Source of the DNA: Parasphingorhabdus sp. DH2-15
GTDB lineage: Bacteria > Pseudomonadota > Alphaproteobacteria > Sphingomonadales > Sphingomonadaceae
Assembly (NCBI RefSeq): GCF_051668705.1
Contig: NZ_CP196351.1
Location: 872,020 to 904,019, forward strand
DNA: 32,000 bases
Direction: 5' to 3'
Positions 7,379 to 29,590 of this stretch are shown here, piece by piece. A program made the position numbers and the translations under genes. How positions within the stretch are numbered: the first letter of the stretch is position 1; each line of letters starts with the position of its first letter. Below the pieces are notes generated by a model that searched no databases, had not been told where the DNA came from, and saw only the letters and a program-made list of their open reading frames with translations.

Positions 7379-8176
7379 ATGCGCAGCTTTCCGATCTTTT
7401 TGGAGCTTCAGGCCCAGCCTGTTATCTTGATAGGTGAGGGGCCTGCTGCGGATGCAAAACGGCGTCTTTATCAGCGTGCAGGGGCTATCATTGTTGGCGA
7501 ATTCCACCCCTGCTCAAAGATTGTAGTGATAGCGGAAGAAGATGATGACGCGGCACATGCCGCCGTTGCGCGGTGCAGAGCCCGCGGATTGCTCATCAAT
7601 GTCGTTGACCGTCCGGCACTATGTGATTTTACCACTCCCGCTATTGTTGATCGCAACCCGGTGACTATTGCCATAGGAACTGGCGGGGCCTCTGCAGGTC
7701 TGGCCAAGGCGCTGCGTCAGCGATTGGAAGCGCTATTGCCAGAAACTTTGGGCGCATTGGCGAAAGGTCTGTTCGCTGCACGGCCCGCTATTAAAGACAC
7801 TTGGCCGGATGGTCGTGAGCGGCGGCAAGCCATTGATGCTGCGCTTCAACCCGGCGGACCGCTCGACCCTTTTGGTGATATAAAAAACGATGCAGTTAAT
7901 GACTGGCTGGCAGAAGGCGGGGATAAGCGCCAAATCGGAATTGAACAGATTGATTTGGCCAGCAATGACCCTGATGATCTGACATTAAAGCAAGCACGAC
8001 TGTTAGCCAGTGCTGATTATGTTATAACAATTGGCAGTGTCGGTGCGGCTATTATGGCGCGGATAAGGGCTGATGCCGATATATTGCCCGGCCCAGATCA
8101 TGGCCATGACCGCGATCATGACCTTCCCGCTGACGCTCTGATTATTCGCCTGACTGCGGCCGCAACAGAAAATTGA
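7379..8176 (+). CDS. Siroheme-synthase N-terminal-domain protein (precorrin-2 dehydrogenase / sirohydrochlorin ferrochelatase-like) with a vestigial methyltransferase start
   Basis: FPIFLELQAQPVILIGEGPAADAKRRL (Rossmann-like), INVVDRPALCDFTTPAIVDRNPVTIAIGTGGASAGLAKALRQRLEALLP. The C-terminal 60 aa resemble only the first part of a SUMT domain and lack its GxGxGD loop. Confidence 0.7.
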   Translation: MRSFPIFLELQAQPVILIGEGPAADAKRRLYQRAGAIIVGEFHPCSKIVVIAEEDDDAAHAAVARCRARGLLINVVDRPALCDFTTPAIVDRNPVTIAIGTGGASAGLAKALRQRLEALLPETLGALAKGLFAARPAIKDTWPDGRERRQAIDAALQPGGPLDPFGDIKNDAVNDWLAEGGDKRQIGIEQIDLASNDPDDLTLKQARLLASADYVITIGSVGAAIMARIRADADILPGPDHGHDRDHDLPADALIIRLTAAATEN

Positions 8177-8573
8177 GGCGTGAGGAAGCAATCAGTTTGC
8201 GCCTGTCCATTTGCCAAGCAAAACTCTCTACATTGGCAACGCGCTGTCCCAATCTGGTGACTTGCCCTAGGGCATAAGTTGTATGTTCACGGCCGCCGCG
8301 CATAAAGTCGATAGTAATGTTGACCGGTTTCATCTGGTCGGCGCGTCCGGCATTGGCCAGAACCACCCGCAACGCAGAAAATGCGGCCATTTCCAGCAGC
8401 CCCGACAATGCGCCACCATGCACAAACCCCGGACGGCCCATAACGCCATTGTTAAAATCATAACAAATAACAGGCAGATCATCTTCAAAGCCATGGATGC
8501 GCATACCCATATGATGCGCAAATGGTGGTAATTGGCGGGCTATTGCTTCGACATTGCTATATTCCGTGGTCAT
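8142..8573 (-). CDS. PaaI-family (hotdog-fold) thioesterase
   Basis: 143 aa. GFVHGGALSGLLEMAAFSAL is the typical PaaI/4HBT-II core. It overlaps the upstream paralog by 4 nt (ATGA), and its 3' end overlaps the convergent gene 7379..8176 by 35 nt. Confidence 0.75.
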   Translation of the reverse strand: MTTEYSNVEAIARQLPPFAHHMGMRIHGFEDDLPVICYDFNNGVMGRPGFVHGGALSGLLEMAAFSALRVVLANAGRADQMKPVNITIDFMRGGREHTTYALGQVTRLGQRVANVESFAWQMDRRKLIASSRLNFLLRPQSGE

Positions 8574-9007
8574 GCCGTTACATCCATATTGATAAAAGTT
8601 CCTGCAACATGGGCGATGGGGTCATCCAAATCACCATGATGGGCTATGCCGCGCACAAATGCGATTGATCGTTTGATTTGGTAACATTCGCCGCGCCCGT
8701 ACACGATTTTATTGGGTTCTGCTGCACGCATATAGTCGACGCGCAGATCAAGCGTGACTTGTGGCCGGAATTTACCCAGTCTTGCCCAAACGGAAAGGCT
8801 AGTGGCGTTGTCCATCATGCTGATGATGGGCCCCGATGCTAATATACCGGTCGACTCATCACCGACCAACTCTTTGCGCCAAGGCAGGGCCAATTCCACC
8901 CAGTCATCGCCATGGTCATGATATCCGAAGCCGATATGGCCGCCATGACCATGGCTTGAAATGGCTTCTATCCATTGCTTTGGGTTAAAATTTTCCGTGT
9001 CGGCCAT
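8570..9007 (-). CDS. PaaI-family (hotdog-fold) thioesterase, paralog
   Basis: 145 aa. LPWRKELVGDESTGILASGPIISMMDNATSLSVWA has the hotdog pattern. It is translationally coupled to 8142..8573. Confidence 0.7.
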   Translation of the reverse strand: MADTENFNPKQWIEAISSHGHGGHIGFGYHDHGDDWVELALPWRKELVGDESTGILASGPIISMMDNATSLSVWARLGKFRPQVTLDLRVDYMRAAEPNKIVYGRGECYQIKRSIAFVRGIAHHGDLDDPIAHVAGTFINMDVTA

Positions 9008-9183
9008 GCCGATAATATCCTTTTTATAAGGAGAATTTTATCAAACTCCCCTTCGCATAATATGTTCATTTTTATGTCCCGAACTTCATTAGCGGCTCGG
9101 TCTGTTTCTCCATAACCATGAAGGCGCGAATTCCCAAGAATTTGCACATCGCATCTTAACATGAAGATAAAGGAGAAGACTTT

Positions 9184-9336
9184 ATGAACCTGGCAGACAT
9201 TCCTGAATTGACTGAGAAAGTCGCGAATTTTGGTTCTATGGTGATGGACTCAGCACCCATGATCGCTGGTGACGACCTTTGGCTCATTCTCGCAATTTAT
9301 ATCTTTGAAGCACAAGATCTGGCTCTCGGTTTCTGA
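9184..9336 (+). CDS. Small 50-aa protein, unknown function (below the track's length cutoff)
   Basis: Hand-translated: MNLADIPELTEKVANFGSMVMDSAPMIAGDDLWLILAIYIFEAQDLALGF*. AAGGAG lies 8 nt upstream of the ATG. It ends 20 nt before the next co-directional ORF. Confidence 0.5.
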   Translation: MNLADIPELTEKVANFGSMVMDSAPMIAGDDLWLILAIYIFEAQDLALGF

Positions 9337-9356
9337 TCGTTTATGTGTTTTGAGTA

Positions 9357-10313
9357 ATGCAGATATCTCCGCCCTTGTCCGAATATCGTGCGCAGCCGCA
9401 TCGTCGCGCTCAGGCTATACAGGCCGGTAAAAAAGCATTTGCTGCTTGGCAAAACCATCCGGTTTGGGCGGGGTATCGCGCATTACTTGAGCATGCTGTA
9501 ACCTTGTCTGCCGTTGACGCTATACGCCATTTACGCCCTATCCTTGATGATAATCTCATAGCACCAGCCTTTCTGGAGCATTTCTTATCGGCGATGACGC
9601 ATGATGAACTTGTGCAATTGCAATGCCCGGCAACTTTGTCAGTGCAAAGCACTGTCATCATATTATTGAGGCATGGCCGTATAAATATTGCACTTGTCGC
9701 TTTGCGCAAAAAAGCTGCTGATGCATCTGGTAATGCCATGCATGATAGAATTTGCCTTTCTAATGGGCATAGCGCGCTGCGTCTTATCAACGGTGCGCAG
9801 GCGGATTATCGATTGTTTGCGCGTGACCATGAAGAGCAAGAGGCCATGGTTTTGACTTACAAAGGCCGTGTTGCAAGTGATGCCAGCTTGATAATCGATA
9901 ATAGCCAGCAGGGCTTGCTGATAGATGTGCTGGAACAGCCCGCTCTATTTTTGCGCATAACAGTGGAAGATGACGGCTCATCATCGACCAATGGTGATGA
10001 TTGTTATCGTTATTTTGATGCGCAGACGGGCCGGTTGCTGGGCAAATCTGCGGGTAATATGCAATCAACGCGCCGTCTTATGCTGCTTTCTGCATTGCGT
10101 TCTCTTGGTGCCGCACATCACGCACCTGAGATGCTAGTAGTGACAGAGGAACCCGTGGCGGCTTTGCGGTGGCAGGCTATGCGCGAATGTCTGGCTACCG
10201 ATATGAAAGCAGCCATGCCGCGATTGGCGGATATGGCTAAGGGTGATCCAGATGATGAAATACGCGCACTGGCCCATCAAATCTTGCAACATATTGGGCA
10301 AAAGGCCGCATAA
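9357..10313 (+). CDS. Hypothetical protein, beta-rich core plus HEAT-like C-terminus
   Basis: 318-aa ORF with no family I can name. The C-terminus, PVAALRWQAMRECLATDMKAAMPRLADMAKGDPDDEIRALAHQIL, looks like HEAT/PBS-lyase-type repeats. The stop is 3 nt before the next ORF. Confidence 0.6.
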   Translation: MQISPPLSEYRAQPHRRAQAIQAGKKAFAAWQNHPVWAGYRALLEHAVTLSAVDAIRHLRPILDDNLIAPAFLEHFLSAMTHDELVQLQCPATLSVQSTVIILLRHGRINIALVALRKKAADASGNAMHDRICLSNGHSALRLINGAQADYRLFARDHEEQEAMVLTYKGRVASDASLIIDNSQQGLLIDVLEQPALFLRITVEDDGSSSTNGDDCYRYFDAQTGRLLGKSAGNMQSTRRLMLLSALRSLGAAHHAPEMLVVTEEPVAALRWQAMRECLATDMKAAMPRLADMAKGDPDDEIRALAHQILQHIGQKAA

Positions 10314-10316
10314 ACC

Positions 10317-11219
10317 ATGGCCTTGGATATAGCATATAGAGCGCAGGAACCCCTTTCATTGGATGAGGCGCTTTCTTTGGGCGATGCCAATCTTAAAGGG
10401 CTTGAGCGTGAGCAAGAAAGGGAAAATGCCGCGCATATCTTGGCAGGGCTATATGCCAATCGCGACTTTCTGGCAGATGCGGCCATTGACGCGCTGAAAT
10501 TGACATATGCGGATGAGACGCAGGGTCGCCGCAAATATGGACCGCAAGTCATCACTTTGGGTGCTGCACGTCCGGGTTGGTTTTTACGTGCAAATATCTG
10601 GCCTGGCGCGAATGACTATGTGGTGCGCGCCAGCGGCAAAGACGCGTTCTTTTATGGTTTGCCGCATGATCATAATTTTGACTTCCTTACCATCGGATAT
10701 CACGGTCCTGGTTATATTAGCGATTATTATGAGCAGGATTATGAAGCGATTATTGGCTATAAGGGGGAGCCGGCCGGATTGCGTTTCATTGAACGCTCTG
10801 CGCTATCCGAAGGCCGTATGCTTTACTATCGCAAGCACCGGGATGTGCATTGCCAACATGCCCCCGATGCCCTTTCCATATCGTTGAACATCATGATGAC
10901 AGCGCCCGAACAATATTGGTTTGATCAGTGCCGCTATGATGTGAAACGCAATGTTGTGGAGACTATTCTCTCACAAGGCGCGAATGAGGCGATGTTGCAC
11001 ATTGCTGTAGCGGCTGGTGATGAAAATGGTCGCGATCTGGCGACCGAAATCTTGTGGAATCATCCGTCACAGCGAATGCAGCTGGCAGCGTTGCAGGCGT
11101 TGAGTGAGAACAGCCTATCGCAAATGGAGAAAGATAAGCTTTTTGATCAATGCTGCCGCCATGGTTCTGCGGCTATTGCTGCTGCGGCAAGCCTATATAT
11201 TAATCAGCATGAGCAATAA
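10317..11219 (+). CDS. Hypothetical protein, cupin-like metal-site motif plus HEAT-like C-terminus
   Basis: 300-aa ORF. FFYGLPHDHNFDFLTIGYHGPGY followed by GRMLYYRKHRDVHCQH resembles the two-motif HxH...H cupin signature. C-terminus: HPSQRMQLAALQALSENS...GSAAIAAAASLY. Confidence 0.6.
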   Translation: MALDIAYRAQEPLSLDEALSLGDANLKGLEREQERENAAHILAGLYANRDFLADAAIDALKLTYADETQGRRKYGPQVITLGAARPGWFLRANIWPGANDYVVRASGKDAFFYGLPHDHNFDFLTIGYHGPGYISDYYEQDYEAIIGYKGEPAGLRFIERSALSEGRMLYYRKHRDVHCQHAPDALSISLNIMMTAPEQYWFDQCRYDVKRNVVETILSQGANEAMLHIAVAAGDENGRDLATEILWNHPSQRMQLAALQALSENSLSQMEKDKLFDQCCRHGSAAIAAAASLYINQHEQ

Positions 11220-11282: not shown

Positions 11283-11780
11283 ATGGTCATTTATGGGAAG
11301 GTAAGTTTGATGCCAGAATCAGCGATGGACAGTATGTTTGTCGAGAACATAGCCGCAATCATTCAATTGGCGTTGGCACCGGCCTTTCTGTTGGTAGGTA
11401 TTGGCGGGATGCTGCAGCTTTTTTCCAGCAGACTTGCACGCGTTGTCGATCGGTCAAGAGAGCTGGCAAAGGAACATGGCCAAGTCACTGAAGGGGAACG
11501 CAGGAATATTGTGCGCGAATTGCGTAAGCTCGATCAGCGTATGACGGTTGTCAATCGCTCTATTTTGATGGCGGTATGCGGCGCCATCACTGTCGGCATG
11601 GTTATAACATTGCTGTTTGCGATGGAGCTCGCCGGAATTGATTTATCAGTGGCCGTCGCTGGCGGTTTTATCCTAGCGATGACCTTTATCATGACTGGTC
11701 TGGGGTTCTTCGTGTATGAAGTCCATCTTGCGGACCGCTCAATACATTTGGACAAGGTGTTTTTGAAATGGGACGAGTGA
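11283..11780 (+). CDS. DUF2721-family membrane protein
   Basis: IAAIIQLALAPAFLLVGIGGMLQLFSSRLARVVDRSREL, then RRNIVRELRKLDQRMTVVNRSI, then two TM helices: the typical DUF2721 layout. The start could instead be the ATG at 11310 (MPESAMD). Confidence 0.7.
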   Translation: MVIYGKVSLMPESAMDSMFVENIAAIIQLALAPAFLLVGIGGMLQLFSSRLARVVDRSRELAKEHGQVTEGERRNIVRELRKLDQRMTVVNRSILMAVCGAITVGMVITLLFAMELAGIDLSVAVAGGFILAMTFIMTGLGFFVYEVHLADRSIHLDKVFLKWDE

Positions 11781-26995: not shown

Positions 26996-27280
26996 ATGGC
27001 TAATACGCTTGTAAAAGTTACTGCAGCTGCCGCTGCTCTGGCTGCTGCCGCCTCTCTGGCTTCTGCTCCTGCCGCTGCGCAATCAAAAGAAAAATGCTAT
27101 GGCATTTCTCTCGCTGGTAAAAATGACTGTGCTGCTGGTCCAGGTACAAGCTGTGCCGGTACATCAACCGTTGATTACCAAGGCAATGCTTGGAAATATG
27201 TTGCTAAAGGCAGCTGCGTAAAACAAGGCGGTTCTTTGAAAGCGCGTAAAGGCAACAAAAAGCCAGTCGCAAGCAAATAA
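26996..27280 (+). CDS. DUF2282-family secreted four-Cys peptide, bufferin-type RiPP precursor (BufA-like)
   Basis: 94 aa. Sec-type signal [29 protein letters not shown], then [51 protein letters not shown] (family signature KEKCYG..AGKNDCA...CAG....G.C), then the Lys-rich tail [13 protein letters not shown]. Confidence 0.85.
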
Positions 27281-27301
27281 TTTTTGCGCTAATGAAATCG
27301 G

Positions 27302-28273
27302 ATGACCTCAACTGCTTATCCTGACCACGCCCAATATGGCGAAAAGTCTGCAAACTATATTGGCCAGAATATTGGTAATCGATTGAATGCATTGCCTTTA
27401 TCGGTTGGTATAGGCTTAAAGCCAGTACATTATCATGATGTTCTGGCTAGTGTGGACGATAAGATAGGCGTCATGGCGCCGGGCTGGGTAGAGGTTCATC
27501 CGCAAAATTATTTCGGTGATGGTGGTCCGCCACATAATTGGCTGACTGCCATCGCCGAACATTTTCCTCTCAGTCTTCATAGTGTTGGCCTGTCAATGGG
27601 CTCTGCCGACGGCGTAAGCCGCTATGATCTGGAGAAGATAGCTGCTTTGTGTGCGCGCTATAACCCGGCAAGTGTTTCTGATCATCTGAGCTGGAGCGGT
27701 CAAACAAGTGATCGTTATCCCGACCTTCTACCTATCCCTTATACTCAGGCGTCATTAGATCATTTTGCACGCCAGATTGATATTGTGCAGGAAAGACTGG
27801 GTCGTACTATCTTGGTGGAGAACCCGTCGCGTTATCTGGGTTATAAAGATGATGTGATGGACGAAATTGATTTCATCCATAAAATATGTGCGGCGACGGG
27901 CTGCGGCCTATTGTTCGATATAAATAATGTTGAGGTCAGTAGCACCAATATGTCTGTTATGGACCCAGAGCATCAAATGCCCGACCCAAGAGATTATATT
28001 GACGCGATCGACCCTGCAATTGTTGGGGAAATCCATTTGGCTGGTCATGCGCGCGAAGACCATGACGATGGGCCTTTGCTCATCGACGATCATGGCAGTG
28101 CAGTAAATGATCTGTGCTGGTCTTTATATGAGCGTTTTATCGCCAGATCCGGACCAAAACCAACATTGATTGAGTGGGACACGGATATACCCGATTATGC
28201 GGTTTTGATGGAGCAGGTCGCAATTGCGCGCTTGATCATGGCCAAAGCACTGCCGCATGAAGATGCTGCATAA
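27302..28273 (+). CDS. DUF692 / MNIO (multinuclear non-heme iron oxidative) enzyme, BufB/MbnB-like
   Basis: 323 aa. SVGIGLKPVHYHDVL, WVEVHPQNYFGDGG, LSLHSVGLSMGS, VSDHLSW, ILVENPSRYL, FDINNVEVS, EIHLAGH, TLIEWD: the TIM-barrel DUF692 pattern. A possible alternative start is TTG at 27383. Confidence 0.85.
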   Translation: MTSTAYPDHAQYGEKSANYIGQNIGNRLNALPLSVGIGLKPVHYHDVLASVDDKIGVMAPGWVEVHPQNYFGDGGPPHNWLTAIAEHFPLSLHSVGLSMGSADGVSRYDLEKIAALCARYNPASVSDHLSWSGQTSDRYPDLLPIPYTQASLDHFARQIDIVQERLGRTILVENPSRYLGYKDDVMDEIDFIHKICAATGCGLLFDINNVEVSSTNMSVMDPEHQMPDPRDYIDAIDPAIVGEIHLAGHAREDHDDGPLLIDDHGSAVNDLCWSLYERFIARSGPKPTLIEWDTDIPDYAVLMEQVAIARLIMAKALPHEDAA

Positions 28274-28285
28274 AGCTGATATATA

Positions 28286-29056
28286 GTGACAAAACCCGAA
28301 AGAGATAATGGTGCCGATCTCTTGGCCAGTGGCCAATCCGGCTTTATGGATGCCTTGCAAAAAGGGCCTGACCATTTGCCATCCAATTTGTTCAGTGGTT
28401 CGCGCTATCGTGCCTTTATTGGCGTAAAGGCCCATGCCAATACTATATCCCATGCACGGCTGGTCGCGCTTGAGGATACATATCCCAGACTGCGGGAGCG
28501 CTTGGGCGATGAGGCATTTAATCAACTGAGCCGCGATTATCTGGAATATGGCGATGTTCGCCAAAATGATATGAATGGTTTGGGGCGAGACTTTGCCGAA
28601 TTTATCGATGCGCAAGGTGTAGATAAAGCCAGCAGTGATTTGGCACATATCGAATGGGCCTGGCTAAAAAGCTATCATGCAGCCGATGCAGAAGCCCTTA
28701 ATATGCAGGATATTGCCGCTCTGGATGAAGCAGCATTGATGGAACTGCCCATCGCTTTGCATCCATCTGTACAGCATATCATGCTGCACGCACCATTGGC
28801 GCCGGAATTGGGGTTGGAAGTGCCCGCAGGTGATCATCTGGCTGCCATTGCGATTGTGCGTCAACAAAATGACGTTTTGCTCTTTCCGCAAACCACTGTG
28901 CAAAAAGATATTTTTATTTGCTGCAAAAATTCGGTACTGATGCGTAACCTTTTGGAATCCGCTGTCGAAACTATAGGGGAGACGCACGCTGTAGAACATA
29001 TTTTTGCTCTTGTTGGGGCAGGGTTTCTAAAGCGTTCGAACAAAAAACAAGACTAA
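28286..29056 (+). CDS. DUF2063-family protein, partner subunit of the MNIO enzyme (BufC-like)
   Basis: 256 aa, GTG start 12 nt after the DUF692 stop. FMDALQKG...YRAFIGVKAHANTISHARLVALEDTYPRLRERLGDEAFNQLSRDYL is the typical DUF2063 N-domain. Confidence 0.8.
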   Translation: MTKPERDNGADLLASGQSGFMDALQKGPDHLPSNLFSGSRYRAFIGVKAHANTISHARLVALEDTYPRLRERLGDEAFNQLSRDYLEYGDVRQNDMNGLGRDFAEFIDAQGVDKASSDLAHIEWAWLKSYHAADAEALNMQDIAALDEAALMELPIALHPSVQHIMLHAPLAPELGLEVPAGDHLAAIAIVRQQNDVLLFPQTTVQKDIFICCKNSVLMRNLLESAVETIGETHAVEHIFALVGAGFLKRSNKKQD

Positions 29057-29134
29057 CGATTGCAGCGGCTGATCAGACCATGGCTTCGACTATTTGGGCC
29101 TGCTGTTGGCCAGATTGTAAAATGGGACAATATA

Positions 29135-29590
29135 ATGAAAAATCTAATTTCAAAAATCGAAACTCTGACCGCAAACCCGTTTTTGGTGAGTGTCTTTTTG
29201 CTTCTAACACGGATTACACTAGGTGGCATCTTCTGGCGCTCGGCTACAACCCGCTTCGAAGAGGGTAGCTGGACCACATTGAATGAGAACGCAATTTACC
29301 AGTTTTCCGATGTTCCTTTTAATCAGGTGCCCGTGATTAACGGCGAATTTGGCGCGTATTTCACGACATTCAGTGAATTGGCGGTATCCATTTTATTGTT
29401 CCTTGGCTTCGCGACACGCCTGAGCGCTCTGGCAACCATTGGTATGATGAGTGTAATTCAGATTTTTGTCTTCCCGACTATCCCGCACCTTTGGGGCGTA
29501 GTCTTTATGTGGGCAATCATGGCGATTGTCCTTGTTGCGAAAGGTGGTGGAATGTTCTCAATCGACCGTCTGTTCACCAAAGCAGGATAA
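29135..29590 (+). CDS. DoxX-family inner-membrane protein
   Basis: MKNLISKIETLTANPFLVSVFLLLTRITLGGIFWRSA followed by four hydrophobic helices. The track ORF starts at TTG 29060, but I prefer the ATG at 29135. Confidence 0.75.
   Translation: MKNLISKIETLTANPFLVSVFLLLTRITLGGIFWRSATTRFEEGSWTTLNENAIYQFSDVPFNQVPVINGEFGAYFTTFSELAVSILLFLGFATRLSALATIGMMSVIQIFVFPTIPHLWGVVFMWAIMAIVLVAKGGGMFSIDRLFTKAG

Follow-up and report, generated by a model that had tools for sequence, protein, structure and literature searches.

What do the three closely spaced genes at positions 9184 to 11219 of this DNA encode, and do their products work together? The window is the whole stretch that was analyzed, 32,000 nucleotides from Parasphingorhabdus sp. 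DH2-15. The features of the locus are listed below.

8142-8573 and 8570-9007, minus strand: two 4HBT-superfamily thioesterases (PaaI), flanking the cassette
9170-9175, plus strand: AAGGAG, a Shine-Dalgarno-like motif 8 nt before the ATG of the small ORF, read directly from the sequence
9184-9336, plus strand: small ORF, encoding a 50-aa acidic small protein
9357-10313, plus strand: P2, a 318-aa cupin-fold protein without conserved metal ligands
10317-11219, plus strand: P3, a 300-aa cupin with a conserved His site
11283-11780: DUF2721 protein (E 4e-31), flanking the cassette

The earlier note on this DNA had described the three ORFs, the gaps of 20 nt (small ORF to P2) and 3 nt (P2 to P3), and the AAGGAG motif; all are present at these positions. 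Of 78 related loci, 53 had an SD-like motif between −18 and −4 relative to the start of the peptide gene, and the gap between the peptide gene and P2 had a median of approximately 15 nt across related loci. The stop codon of P2 overlapped the start codon of P3 by 4 nt in 34 of 73 loci, with a median spacing of −4. A promoter and terminator scan gave no internal signal above chance, and the region had no RNA family match in Rfam. The three genes likely comprise one translationally coupled operon, which would encode a lineage-specific cytoplasmic protein module.

The PaaI pair and the DUF2721 gene, which had been described as flanking the cassette, are indeed present. They are not members of the unit, because the same genes are also found at loci without the cassette; we therefore rejected them as module members and assigned them to the chromosomal backbone. 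The GC content of the cassette was the same as that of its flanks.

The trio was present in 121 of 274 genomes of one GTDB family within Sphingomonadales (approximately 44%) and in 0 of 400 other alphaproteobacterial genomes. All three genes were found wherever enough DNA was available. In two genomes (G006 and G007), all three were absent together and the backbone was otherwise identical. Gains and losses of the trio concern all three genes together and occur at one constant chromosomal position. The co-conservation that the earlier note had proposed to check was confirmed. Clustering of the neighbors at 76 loci yielded only backbone genes, namely lysA, a CysG-N-like gene, the two PaaI genes, ruvX, and a lipase-like gene. 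Within genera, the module occurs patchily. Its site is constant and surrounded by housekeeping genes, and its inheritance looks vertical. The pairwise distances of the three proteins correlated with r = 0.81–0.89, values inflated by shared ancestry. The dN/dS values were 0.10 and 0.025 for the small protein (two close pairs), 0.06 for P3, and 0.30 for P2, and P2 evolves about twice as fast as P3. By these sequence-based measures, all three genes are under purifying selection.

A profile of the small protein matched at 88 of 92 related loci, in every case on the same strand and immediately upstream, so its synteny is conserved. Three of the four misses lacked upstream DNA, and one had a divergent 35-aa version. 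Judged from this conservation, the 50-aa ORF is a real gene and more than a chance reading frame. It is single-copy, and no second copy was found in the genome. Fusion of the peptide with P2 was considered and rejected, as inspection of ORF coordinates revealed that long P2 ORFs are out-of-frame extensions in high-GC DNA. Gene callers miss this conserved small protein.

The family comprises 81 distinct sequences of 45–59 aa with a mean net charge of −4.7. They share an N-terminal (L/I)P-x-L, followed by G-x-FG, a variable linker, DD, and a hydrophobic run that closes with [FY]E, and conservation spans the entire length. The hydrophobic run looks β-strand-like and, having only 10–12 residues, is too short for a membrane helix. 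The protein has no signal peptide. Pfam gave no match for the single sequence or the family, and the peptide profile had no match in PDB. Only Pro16, Gly32, and Asp47 (alignment columns) are invariant; such Pro, Gly, and Asp residues are typical of structural or binding positions and not of modification sites, as far as the alignment can tell. The aromatic position can be Y, F, W, H, or M, and the acidic position next to it is also replaceable. Cys is present in just 4 of the 81 sequences, and the N-termini vary (MN, MK, MD, ME, MT, and so on).

P3 had been proposed to carry a 3-His metal site within PHDHNFDF and HRDVHCQH, which are residues 116–123 and 174–181 of the window's protein. Among 36 aligned members (alignment A1), H117, H119, and H178 were invariant, and H174 was kept in at least 90%; H174 and H178 are both candidates for the third ligand. 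Other invariant residues include D, N, and F of H117-D-H119-N-F, as well as D176, Q180, S187, S189, and N191. The AF2 model of P3 (pLDDT 89.6) consists of N-terminal helices (residues 15–64), a barrel (78–219), and a C-terminal helical repeat (222–299). Its top Foldseek matches were mercaptosuccinate, 3-mercaptopropionate, and cysteine dioxygenases (CDO) together with ADO and plant cysteine oxidases (PCO), at E values of 1e-7 to 1e-5. The proposal is supported by the conserved histidines and by this match to the fold of 3-His thiol dioxygenases. P3 is single-copy in the genome. Its family forms 900 clusters at 50% identity, and relatives occur in 463 species genomes, Sphingomonadales throughout among the matches listed.

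The P2 model (pLDDT 92.2) has the same three-domain layout, with N-terminal helices (residues 5–80), a cupin barrel (92–232), and a C-terminal helical repeat (235–317) in which a conserved LRWQAxREC motif is located. CDO-type cupins were the best PDB matches for both models, and the top Foldseek match of P2 was rat cysteine dioxygenase (E 5e-7, rmsd approximately 3.6 Å over approximately 145 columns). Foldseek probabilities were 1.00 against many cupins for P3 and P2, with target-normalised TM-scores of 0.5–0.6. P3 has the two-motif cupin metal site (HxH in motif 1 and H in motif 2), whereas P2 does not; the family alignment contained no conserved His or acidic residue in the P2 barrel. The invariant residues of P2 are R271, W272, L290, and D299. 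A P2 homolog was found upstream of every P3 homolog with enough flanking DNA, and P2 is single-copy, with no extra copies found. P2 looks like a degenerate paralog of P3, as its modeled architecture and best PDB matches are those of P3 and conserved metal ligands are missing. The earlier suggestion that the two large proteins are distant paralogs is thus supported by shared architecture and structural matches. The C-terminal likeness also noted there was recovered by hhalign, which aligned the motifs of P2 and P3 in register, although weakly (probability 21%, E 1e-3). We also considered an inter-subunit Cys pair between C-[PR]-A in the P2 C-terminus and CxLxEC in the P3 N-terminus. The idea was discarded, since the two features are not found together and both are missing from the window's copy.

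Curated libraries offered little for these proteins. Pfam, NCBIfam, and PADLOC gave nothing above threshold for any of the three, a Pfam search with the P3 family also gave no usable match, and a sequence search of PDB with the P3 profile (A1) returned nothing relevant. The large proteins therefore belong to no named family in these libraries, as the earlier note had stated, nor do they fall into unrelated known families. Their C-termini had been called HEAT-like. Each model has five C-terminal helices, so the tails are helical, but the sequence matches to HEAT are weak: P2 matched HEAT_2 below threshold (E 0.035, 14.8 bits against a cut-off of 27.7), a P2 homolog (L123) had a weak HEAT_2 match, and the P3 tail of another homolog (P0138) matched HEAT at E 3e-4, below the cut-off.

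We compared P3 with the thiol dioxygenases at the sequence level. The Pfam models CDO_I and PCO_ADO did not match P3 or 36 relatives (E ≤ 1–5). When hhalign was used to compare the P3 alignment A1 with a verified rat CDO, the probability was 1.5%, which was not significant, and P2 against the same CDO was also not significant. As judged from the model, the likeness of P3 to thiol dioxygenases is at the fold level only. PMC10966181 describes a Ser-His-Tyr (SHY) second-sphere motif as defining the thiol dioxygenase family. In a gapless register that has no statistical support, CDO LH140RVENVSHTEPAVS153LH155LY157 corresponds to P3 KH174RDVH178CQHAPDALS187IS189LN191. Ser-His-Tyr thus appears to be replaced in P3 by Ser-Ser-Asn, all three residues being invariant. 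As the hhalign comparison with rat CDO was not significant, we infer this residue mapping from the register.

The trio is a real and previously undescribed module. For its function, we tentatively favor a three-subunit cupin complex with the small acidic protein as a bound partner, to which we assign a probability of roughly 0.45. P3 would be the catalytic subunit, a mononuclear-metal cupin of the CDO/thiol dioxygenase fold with putative oxygenase chemistry, and would most likely use non-heme iron and O2. Its substrate is probably other than those of known thiol dioxygenases, because the second-sphere Ser-His-Tyr appears to be replaced. P2 would have arisen from an ancient duplication of P3, with later loss of the metal site. 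By analogy with bicupins, its most likely role is that of a non-catalytic partner of P3 that provides a scaffold or confers specificity. The 45–59-aa acidic protein would most likely bind to them stoichiometrically and serve as adaptor, lid, or regulator. Docking on both cupin proteins would involve its acidic LPxLD-type motif(s) and DD/β-strand segment, with the Arg-rich conserved helices of the tails, or an added strand at the barrel, as possible contacts.

Peptide-modifying systems, too, have a leading small gene accompanied by an enzyme and a non-catalytic partner, a similarity that counts against the favored complex. In such a system, the small protein would be a substrate, recognized by P2 and modified at a residue by P3, yielding a RiPP-like product, a cofactor derived from the peptide, or a modified regulatory protein. 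The earlier note had suggested this arrangement, and we regard it as possible but doubtful. It is consistent with the tight coupling of a small ORF, a non-catalytic partner, and a metalloenzyme, in that order, and with the bipartite peptide, whose conserved N-module, variable linker, and conserved C-module resemble a leader and a core. The nearest folds include ADO and PCO, which oxidize protein termini, and the divergence of the peptide is slightly closer to that of P2 (partial r 0.41) than to that of P3 (partial r 0.28). However, we found no positive evidence for modification. None of the invariant peptide residues offers a modifiable side chain, the aromatic and following acidic positions are replaceable, and the segment that would serve as the core is a hydrophobic strand of the buried type. 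Because Cys is rare and the N-termini vary, the small proteins do not qualify as ADO/PCO-type protein substrates, which carry Cys at position 2. No co-conserved protease, exporter, immunity, or other RiPP gene was found at the 76 loci, nor a second precursor in the genome, and P2 has no RRE or other domain in Pfam. The fixed site among housekeeping genes and the apparent vertical inheritance also oppose this reading, and the evidence leans against a classical RiPP. Two related proposals, non-thiol modification of the dedicated peptide (at the invariant Asp or the backbone) by a CDO-fold enzyme and its pseudo-enzyme, or a peptide that serves as an O2 or redox switch, are together unlikely.

More improbable is a sensor or signaling unit, or a component of a conflict system, in which the cupin binds O2, a metal, or a ligand and relays this to its partners instead of serving as an enzyme of metabolism. 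On two metagenomic contigs, an in-frame fusion joins a complete P3 module to a TPR-S sensor repeat and an adenylate/guanylate cyclase, and P2 lies immediately upstream; the equivalent slot in Sphingopyxis sp. OPL5 is occupied by a TIR-SH3-YARHG gene. In predicted conflict systems, cyclases with TPRs have links to effectors (10.64898/2026.08.12.744502), and ADO and PCO relatives are described as O2 sensors. The patchy occurrence of the module and the fast evolution of P2 also fit. However, the fusion is a singleton among 375 cyclase relatives, the cyclase homolog in the window's genome lies 90 kb away, and no cyclase was a neighbor at the 76 analyzed loci; a general link to TPR-S/cyclase proteins was rejected as a rule. 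PADLOC gave no match, and neither a defense-island context nor a compositional anomaly was observed. A motif scan upstream of 78 peptide genes found no EcfG, SigF, FixK/Fnr, sigma-32, Fur, or RpoN motif, so that no known regulatory motif is shared.

It is very improbable that P3 is a divergent small-molecule thiol dioxygenase of the CDO/MDO kind, with P2 and the small ORF accessory or irrelevant. The top Foldseek matches and the HDH metal motif, which is like the IHDH of CDO, point this way. Against it, 0 of 36 members matched CDO_I or PCO_ADO, the CDO profile comparison was not significant, Ser-His-Tyr seems to read Ser-Ser-Asn in the gapless register, and P2 and the small ORF show both strict co-conservation with P3 and purifying selection. 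Finally, many NCBI records name P3 homologs "transposase", but the name is the only point in favor of that function, which is practically dismissed by the lack of a transposase, integrase, or HTH match in Pfam and NCBIfam, the cupin fold, the single-copy gene at a fixed syntenic site, and the finding of a flanking repeat at none of the loci inspected.

The module adds three protein families that are missing from curated libraries, one of which, P3, is widely mislabeled. It is a clear natural case in which an enzyme is inherited as a unit with its pseudo-enzyme paralog and a dedicated micro-protein. Should the small protein be the target of the cupin or the means by which it acts, the CDO fold would be extended to new chemistry or to bacterial regulation. 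If the peptide undergoes non-thiol modification or serves as an O2/redox switch, the module would be a bacterial counterpart of protein-directed enzymes of the thiol dioxygenase fold, with new chemistry. Even if the trio is an ordinary metabolic enzyme complex, the corrected name and the added small gene improve the annotation of Sphingomonadales.

Among known systems, the MNIO/DUF2063 bufferin cluster in the same window (26996-29590) is similar in layout, with a small ORF first, an iron-type enzyme, a non-catalytic partner, and a tight operon. The enzyme fold differs, being a TIM barrel in MNIO and a cupin in the cassette. DUF2063 matched neither P2 nor the window's P3; two other members of the P3 family had sub-threshold matches (best E 0.15). 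In contrast to bufferin-type RiPP systems, the cassette peptide lacks a signal peptide, and neither Cys nor another modifiable residue is conserved in it; the cassette has no DoxX-type or export gene.

The thiol dioxygenases (CDO, 3-mercaptopropionate, and mercaptosuccinate dioxygenases, ADO, and plant cysteine oxidases) share with P2 and P3 a cupin barrel after N-terminal helices, and the HxH...H site of P3 with its HDH motif resembles the IHDH of the verified CDO sequence. Unlike these enzymes, P2 and P3 carry an extra C-terminal helical-repeat domain of approximately 80 aa, and P3 is accompanied by an obligatory degenerate paralog and a small protein. The candidate peptide partner has no conserved thiol.

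Bicupins, such as pirins, contain one active and one degenerate barrel. P2 and P3 resemble them in that two barrels appear to be related by duplication and the metal site is kept in one. Here, however, the barrels are separate polypeptides encoded by adjacent genes, each with its own helical N- and C-terminal domains, and a third gene encodes a putative small subunit.

The three open reading frames lie in the window exactly where the earlier note had placed them, and each gene is single-copy in the genome.

9184-9336, plus strand: small ORF, 50 aa
9357-10313, plus strand: P2, 318 aa
10317-11219, plus strand: P3, 300 aa

The intergenic gaps are 20 nt (small ORF to P2) and 3 nt (P2 to P3), and an AAGGAG sequence is located 8 nt 5' of the ATG of the small ORF. 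Two 4HBT-superfamily thioesterases on the minus strand flank the trio on the 5' side and a DUF2721 protein on the 3' side. Pfam, NCBIfam and PADLOC contained no family for the three products, apart from a sub-threshold match of the P2 tail to HEAT_2 (E 0.035).

A small ORF of 43-55 aa, sharing a motif with the window peptide, was found directly 5' of the P2 homolog in the 11 related loci fetched first. A profile built from these peptides matched 88 of 92 loci. The upstream DNA was too short in three of the four missed loci; the fourth, L011, is the most distant relative (P3 approximately 35% identical) and carries its own 35-aa ORF with an RBS, showing the family pattern IEIDDL...DSVIVEIVIFYF. 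The dN/dS of the peptide was low (0.10 between the window and genome G005; 0.025 between the two copies in genome G001). Judged from these sequence comparisons, the small ORF proposed in the earlier note is a real, conserved gene. The 81 distinct peptides (45-59 aa) are acidic, with a mean net charge of -4.7, and comprise an N-module (consensus LPKIDLSxLPDLDxLTGxFGS), a variable linker and a C-module, in which DD is followed by approximately 10 hydrophobic beta-branched residues, an aromatic residue and an acidic residue. Only the second half of the N-module, D-IPELTEKVANFGS, is kept in the window's genus. The peptide family matched no entry of Pfam and no PDB sequence.

P3 is one member of an extensive family, with more than 1000 matches in 90% clusters, 900 clusters at the 50% identity level and 463 species genomes. 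Its AlphaFold2 model was confident (pLDDT 89.6, pTM 0.80) and has a beta barrel (78-219) that stands between N-terminal helices and a set of five C-terminal helices. Foldseek against the PDB placed thiol dioxygenases on top, with mercaptosuccinate dioxygenase (8vni, E 1.4e-7), 3-mercaptopropionate dioxygenase, cysteine dioxygenase (CDO) and the N-terminal cysteine oxidases ADO and PCO among the top matches (target-normalised TM-scores 0.5-0.6). In an alignment of 36 members, H117-D118-H119-N120-F121, D176, H178, Q180, S187, S189, N191 and many further polar residues are invariant, and H174 is retained in at least 90%. Many P3 homologs are named "transposase" by NCBI and UniRef (P0005, P0014, P0029, P0085 and others); since no transposase model matched any of the 36 members and the fold is that of a cupin, the label seems to be an annotation error copied from record to record.

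Profile comparisons of P3 and P2 with rat CDO (reference sequence identical to PDB 2b5h) were not significant, and thus the kinship with CDO holds at the fold level only. CDO motifs IHDHTDSHCF and LH140RVENVSHTEPAVS153LH155LY157 are in gapless register with PHDHNFDFLT and KH174RDVH178CQHAPDALS187IS189LN191 of P3, respectively. This suggests one of two residues of a single strand as the third ligand of P3: H174, to which the cupin motif-2 register points, or H178, which is strictly invariant. A Ser-His-Tyr motif characterises the CDO family (PMC10966181), and its counterpart in P3 appears to be Ser-Ser-Asn. Because we infer this residue register, P3 is not classed in the thiol dioxygenase family.

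P2 has changed far more rapidly than P3, with an identity between genera of 17-25% versus 45-50% and a dN/dS of 0.30 versus 0.06. Its confident model (pLDDT 92.2) has the same three-part layout, and the best PDB matches were cysteine dioxygenase (E 5e-7, rmsd approximately 3.6 Å over approximately 145 columns). The barrel contains no His or acidic residue conserved among the aligned homologs; the invariant residues R271, W272, L290 and D299 sit in the C-terminal helices. A weak profile-profile match between P3 and P2 (probability 21%, E 1e-3) aligned the two proteins over their C-terminal halves and set in register the two motifs that had been matched by eye. From the shared fold and architecture of the models, we conclude that P2 and P3 are probably ancient paralogs and that P3 alone kept the metal site. 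The distant paralogy suggested in the earlier note thus stands on structure, sequence alone being insufficient. Among P2 homologs in loci L018-L092 (e.g. L052:2943-3917), 54 of 74 carry a terminal C-[PR]-A, which places the Cys three residues from the C-terminus. This ending is absent from P2 of the window's genus, the window copy ending in QKAA, and showed no association with the variable CxLxEC pair at the P3 N-terminus.

All three genes were present in every locus with enough DNA, and P2 was intact in 73 of the 80 loci of the genome-collection scan. Two MAG loci (L017 and L053) carry a frameshift in P2, and P3 is split or carries a stop in a few genomes (G270, G187, G228, G409 and G013), reflecting either module decay in progress or assembly error. 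The median gap between peptide and P2 genes is approximately 15 nt, and in 34/73 loci a 4-nt overlap joins the P2 stop to the P3 start. Clustering of neighbours (76 loci) recovered only chromosomal backbone genes: lysA, a CysG-N-like gene and two PaaI-type thioesterases upstream, and ruvX and a lipase-like gene downstream. These neighbours included no co-conserved protease or transporter and no further biosynthetic gene. The CysG-N-like gene adjoins the PaaI pair in approximately 50 of the 76 loci and is backbone, outside the cassette; in the window it is as follows.

7379-8176, plus strand: CysG-N/siroheme-synthase-like gene (NAD_binding_7, weak Sirohm_synth_M match)

The PaaI ortholog is also present in genomes lacking the cassette. 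Genome G006 (L099) retains the CysG-N-like/PaaI/PaaI/DUF2721/cytochrome c order of the window with the trio absent, and G007 (L104) retains PaaI/PaaI/ruvX/lipase-like with none of the three genes. As the same backbones exist empty, the trio is a single insertion/deletion unit at a fixed site; its GC content is in line with that of the flanks. A sample of 401 genomes from the order contained the module in 123 (121/274 in one GTDB family, 1/9 in a second, 0/117 in others) and in 28 of 96 genera, mostly as a single copy, with a small number of two-copy genomes and of broken copies. No copy was detected in a further 400 genomes sampled across more than 200 other alphaproteobacterial families. L011 (G022:C1:66161-69898) is a distant, shorter variant with a 35-aa peptide (MTNNSIEIDDLDVMVAPAGSVDSVIVEIVIFYFLV), a P2-like protein of 264 aa and a P3-like protein of 265 aa; its context differs, the downstream ORF being short-chain-dehydrogenase-like as judged by eye.

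These results fit best with a three-subunit module, in which P3 would be the catalytic cupin with the conserved His site, P2 its non-catalytic paralog and the small acidic protein a bound partner. Mirror-tree correlations among the three proteins (r 0.81-0.89) and partial correlations (peptide-P2 0.41, slightly above peptide-P3 0.28) are inflated by shared ancestry. The small protein could instead be a RiPP-like substrate, as the earlier note had speculated; the order of the genes and the two-part peptide agree with this reading, and protein-directed oxidases are among the closest folds. However, only Pro16, Gly32 and Asp47 (alignment columns) are invariant in the peptide, the aromatic position varies (Y, F, W, H, M), the acidic position is replaceable and Cys occurs in only 4 of 81 peptides. 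Moreover, the C-module resembles a buried strand, RiPP accessory genes are absent from the neighbours of the 76 loci, and the genome holds no extra peptide copies. A bound partner is therefore favoured over a substrate.

A sensor or signalling unit was also considered. P0138 (901 aa), assembled independently in two metagenomic runs with a P2 homolog directly upstream, joins a complete P3 module in-frame to a TPR-S repeat and an adenylate/guanylate cyclase domain, and in Sphingopyxis sp. OPL5 the equivalent slot, before a stand-alone cyclase, holds a TIR_2-SH3_3-YARHG gene.

L123:1041-3746: P0138 fusion, metagenomic
L124:1039-3744: P0138 fusion, metagenomic
L125:3799-6785: recorded together with the fusion loci and the OPL5 slot

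TPR-bearing cyclases occur in predicted conflict systems, according to a preprint (10.64898/2026.08.12.744502). Because the fusion is unique among 375 cyclase relatives and the cyclase homolog lies 90 kb away in the window's genome, signalling is kept as a minor rival only.

The three protein families of the module matched nothing in any curated library searched. Enzyme-plus-partner RiPP operons are among the closest known systems, and the window itself contains a canonical bufferin-type cluster (26996-29590, plus strand).

26996-27280, plus strand: DUF2282 precursor
27302-28273, plus strand: MbnB/TglH/ChrH-family MNIO enzyme (E 6e-88)
28286-29056, plus strand: DUF2063
29060-29590, plus strand: DoxX

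The trio differs from such operons in its fold and in having neither a modifiable core nor accessory genes. P3 shares the fold and His site of thiol dioxygenases, but it lacks sequence membership, its second sphere appears to differ, and its module includes extra domains and partners. Bicupins contain two barrels, one of which is degenerate, whereas the trio encodes its two barrels in separate genes.
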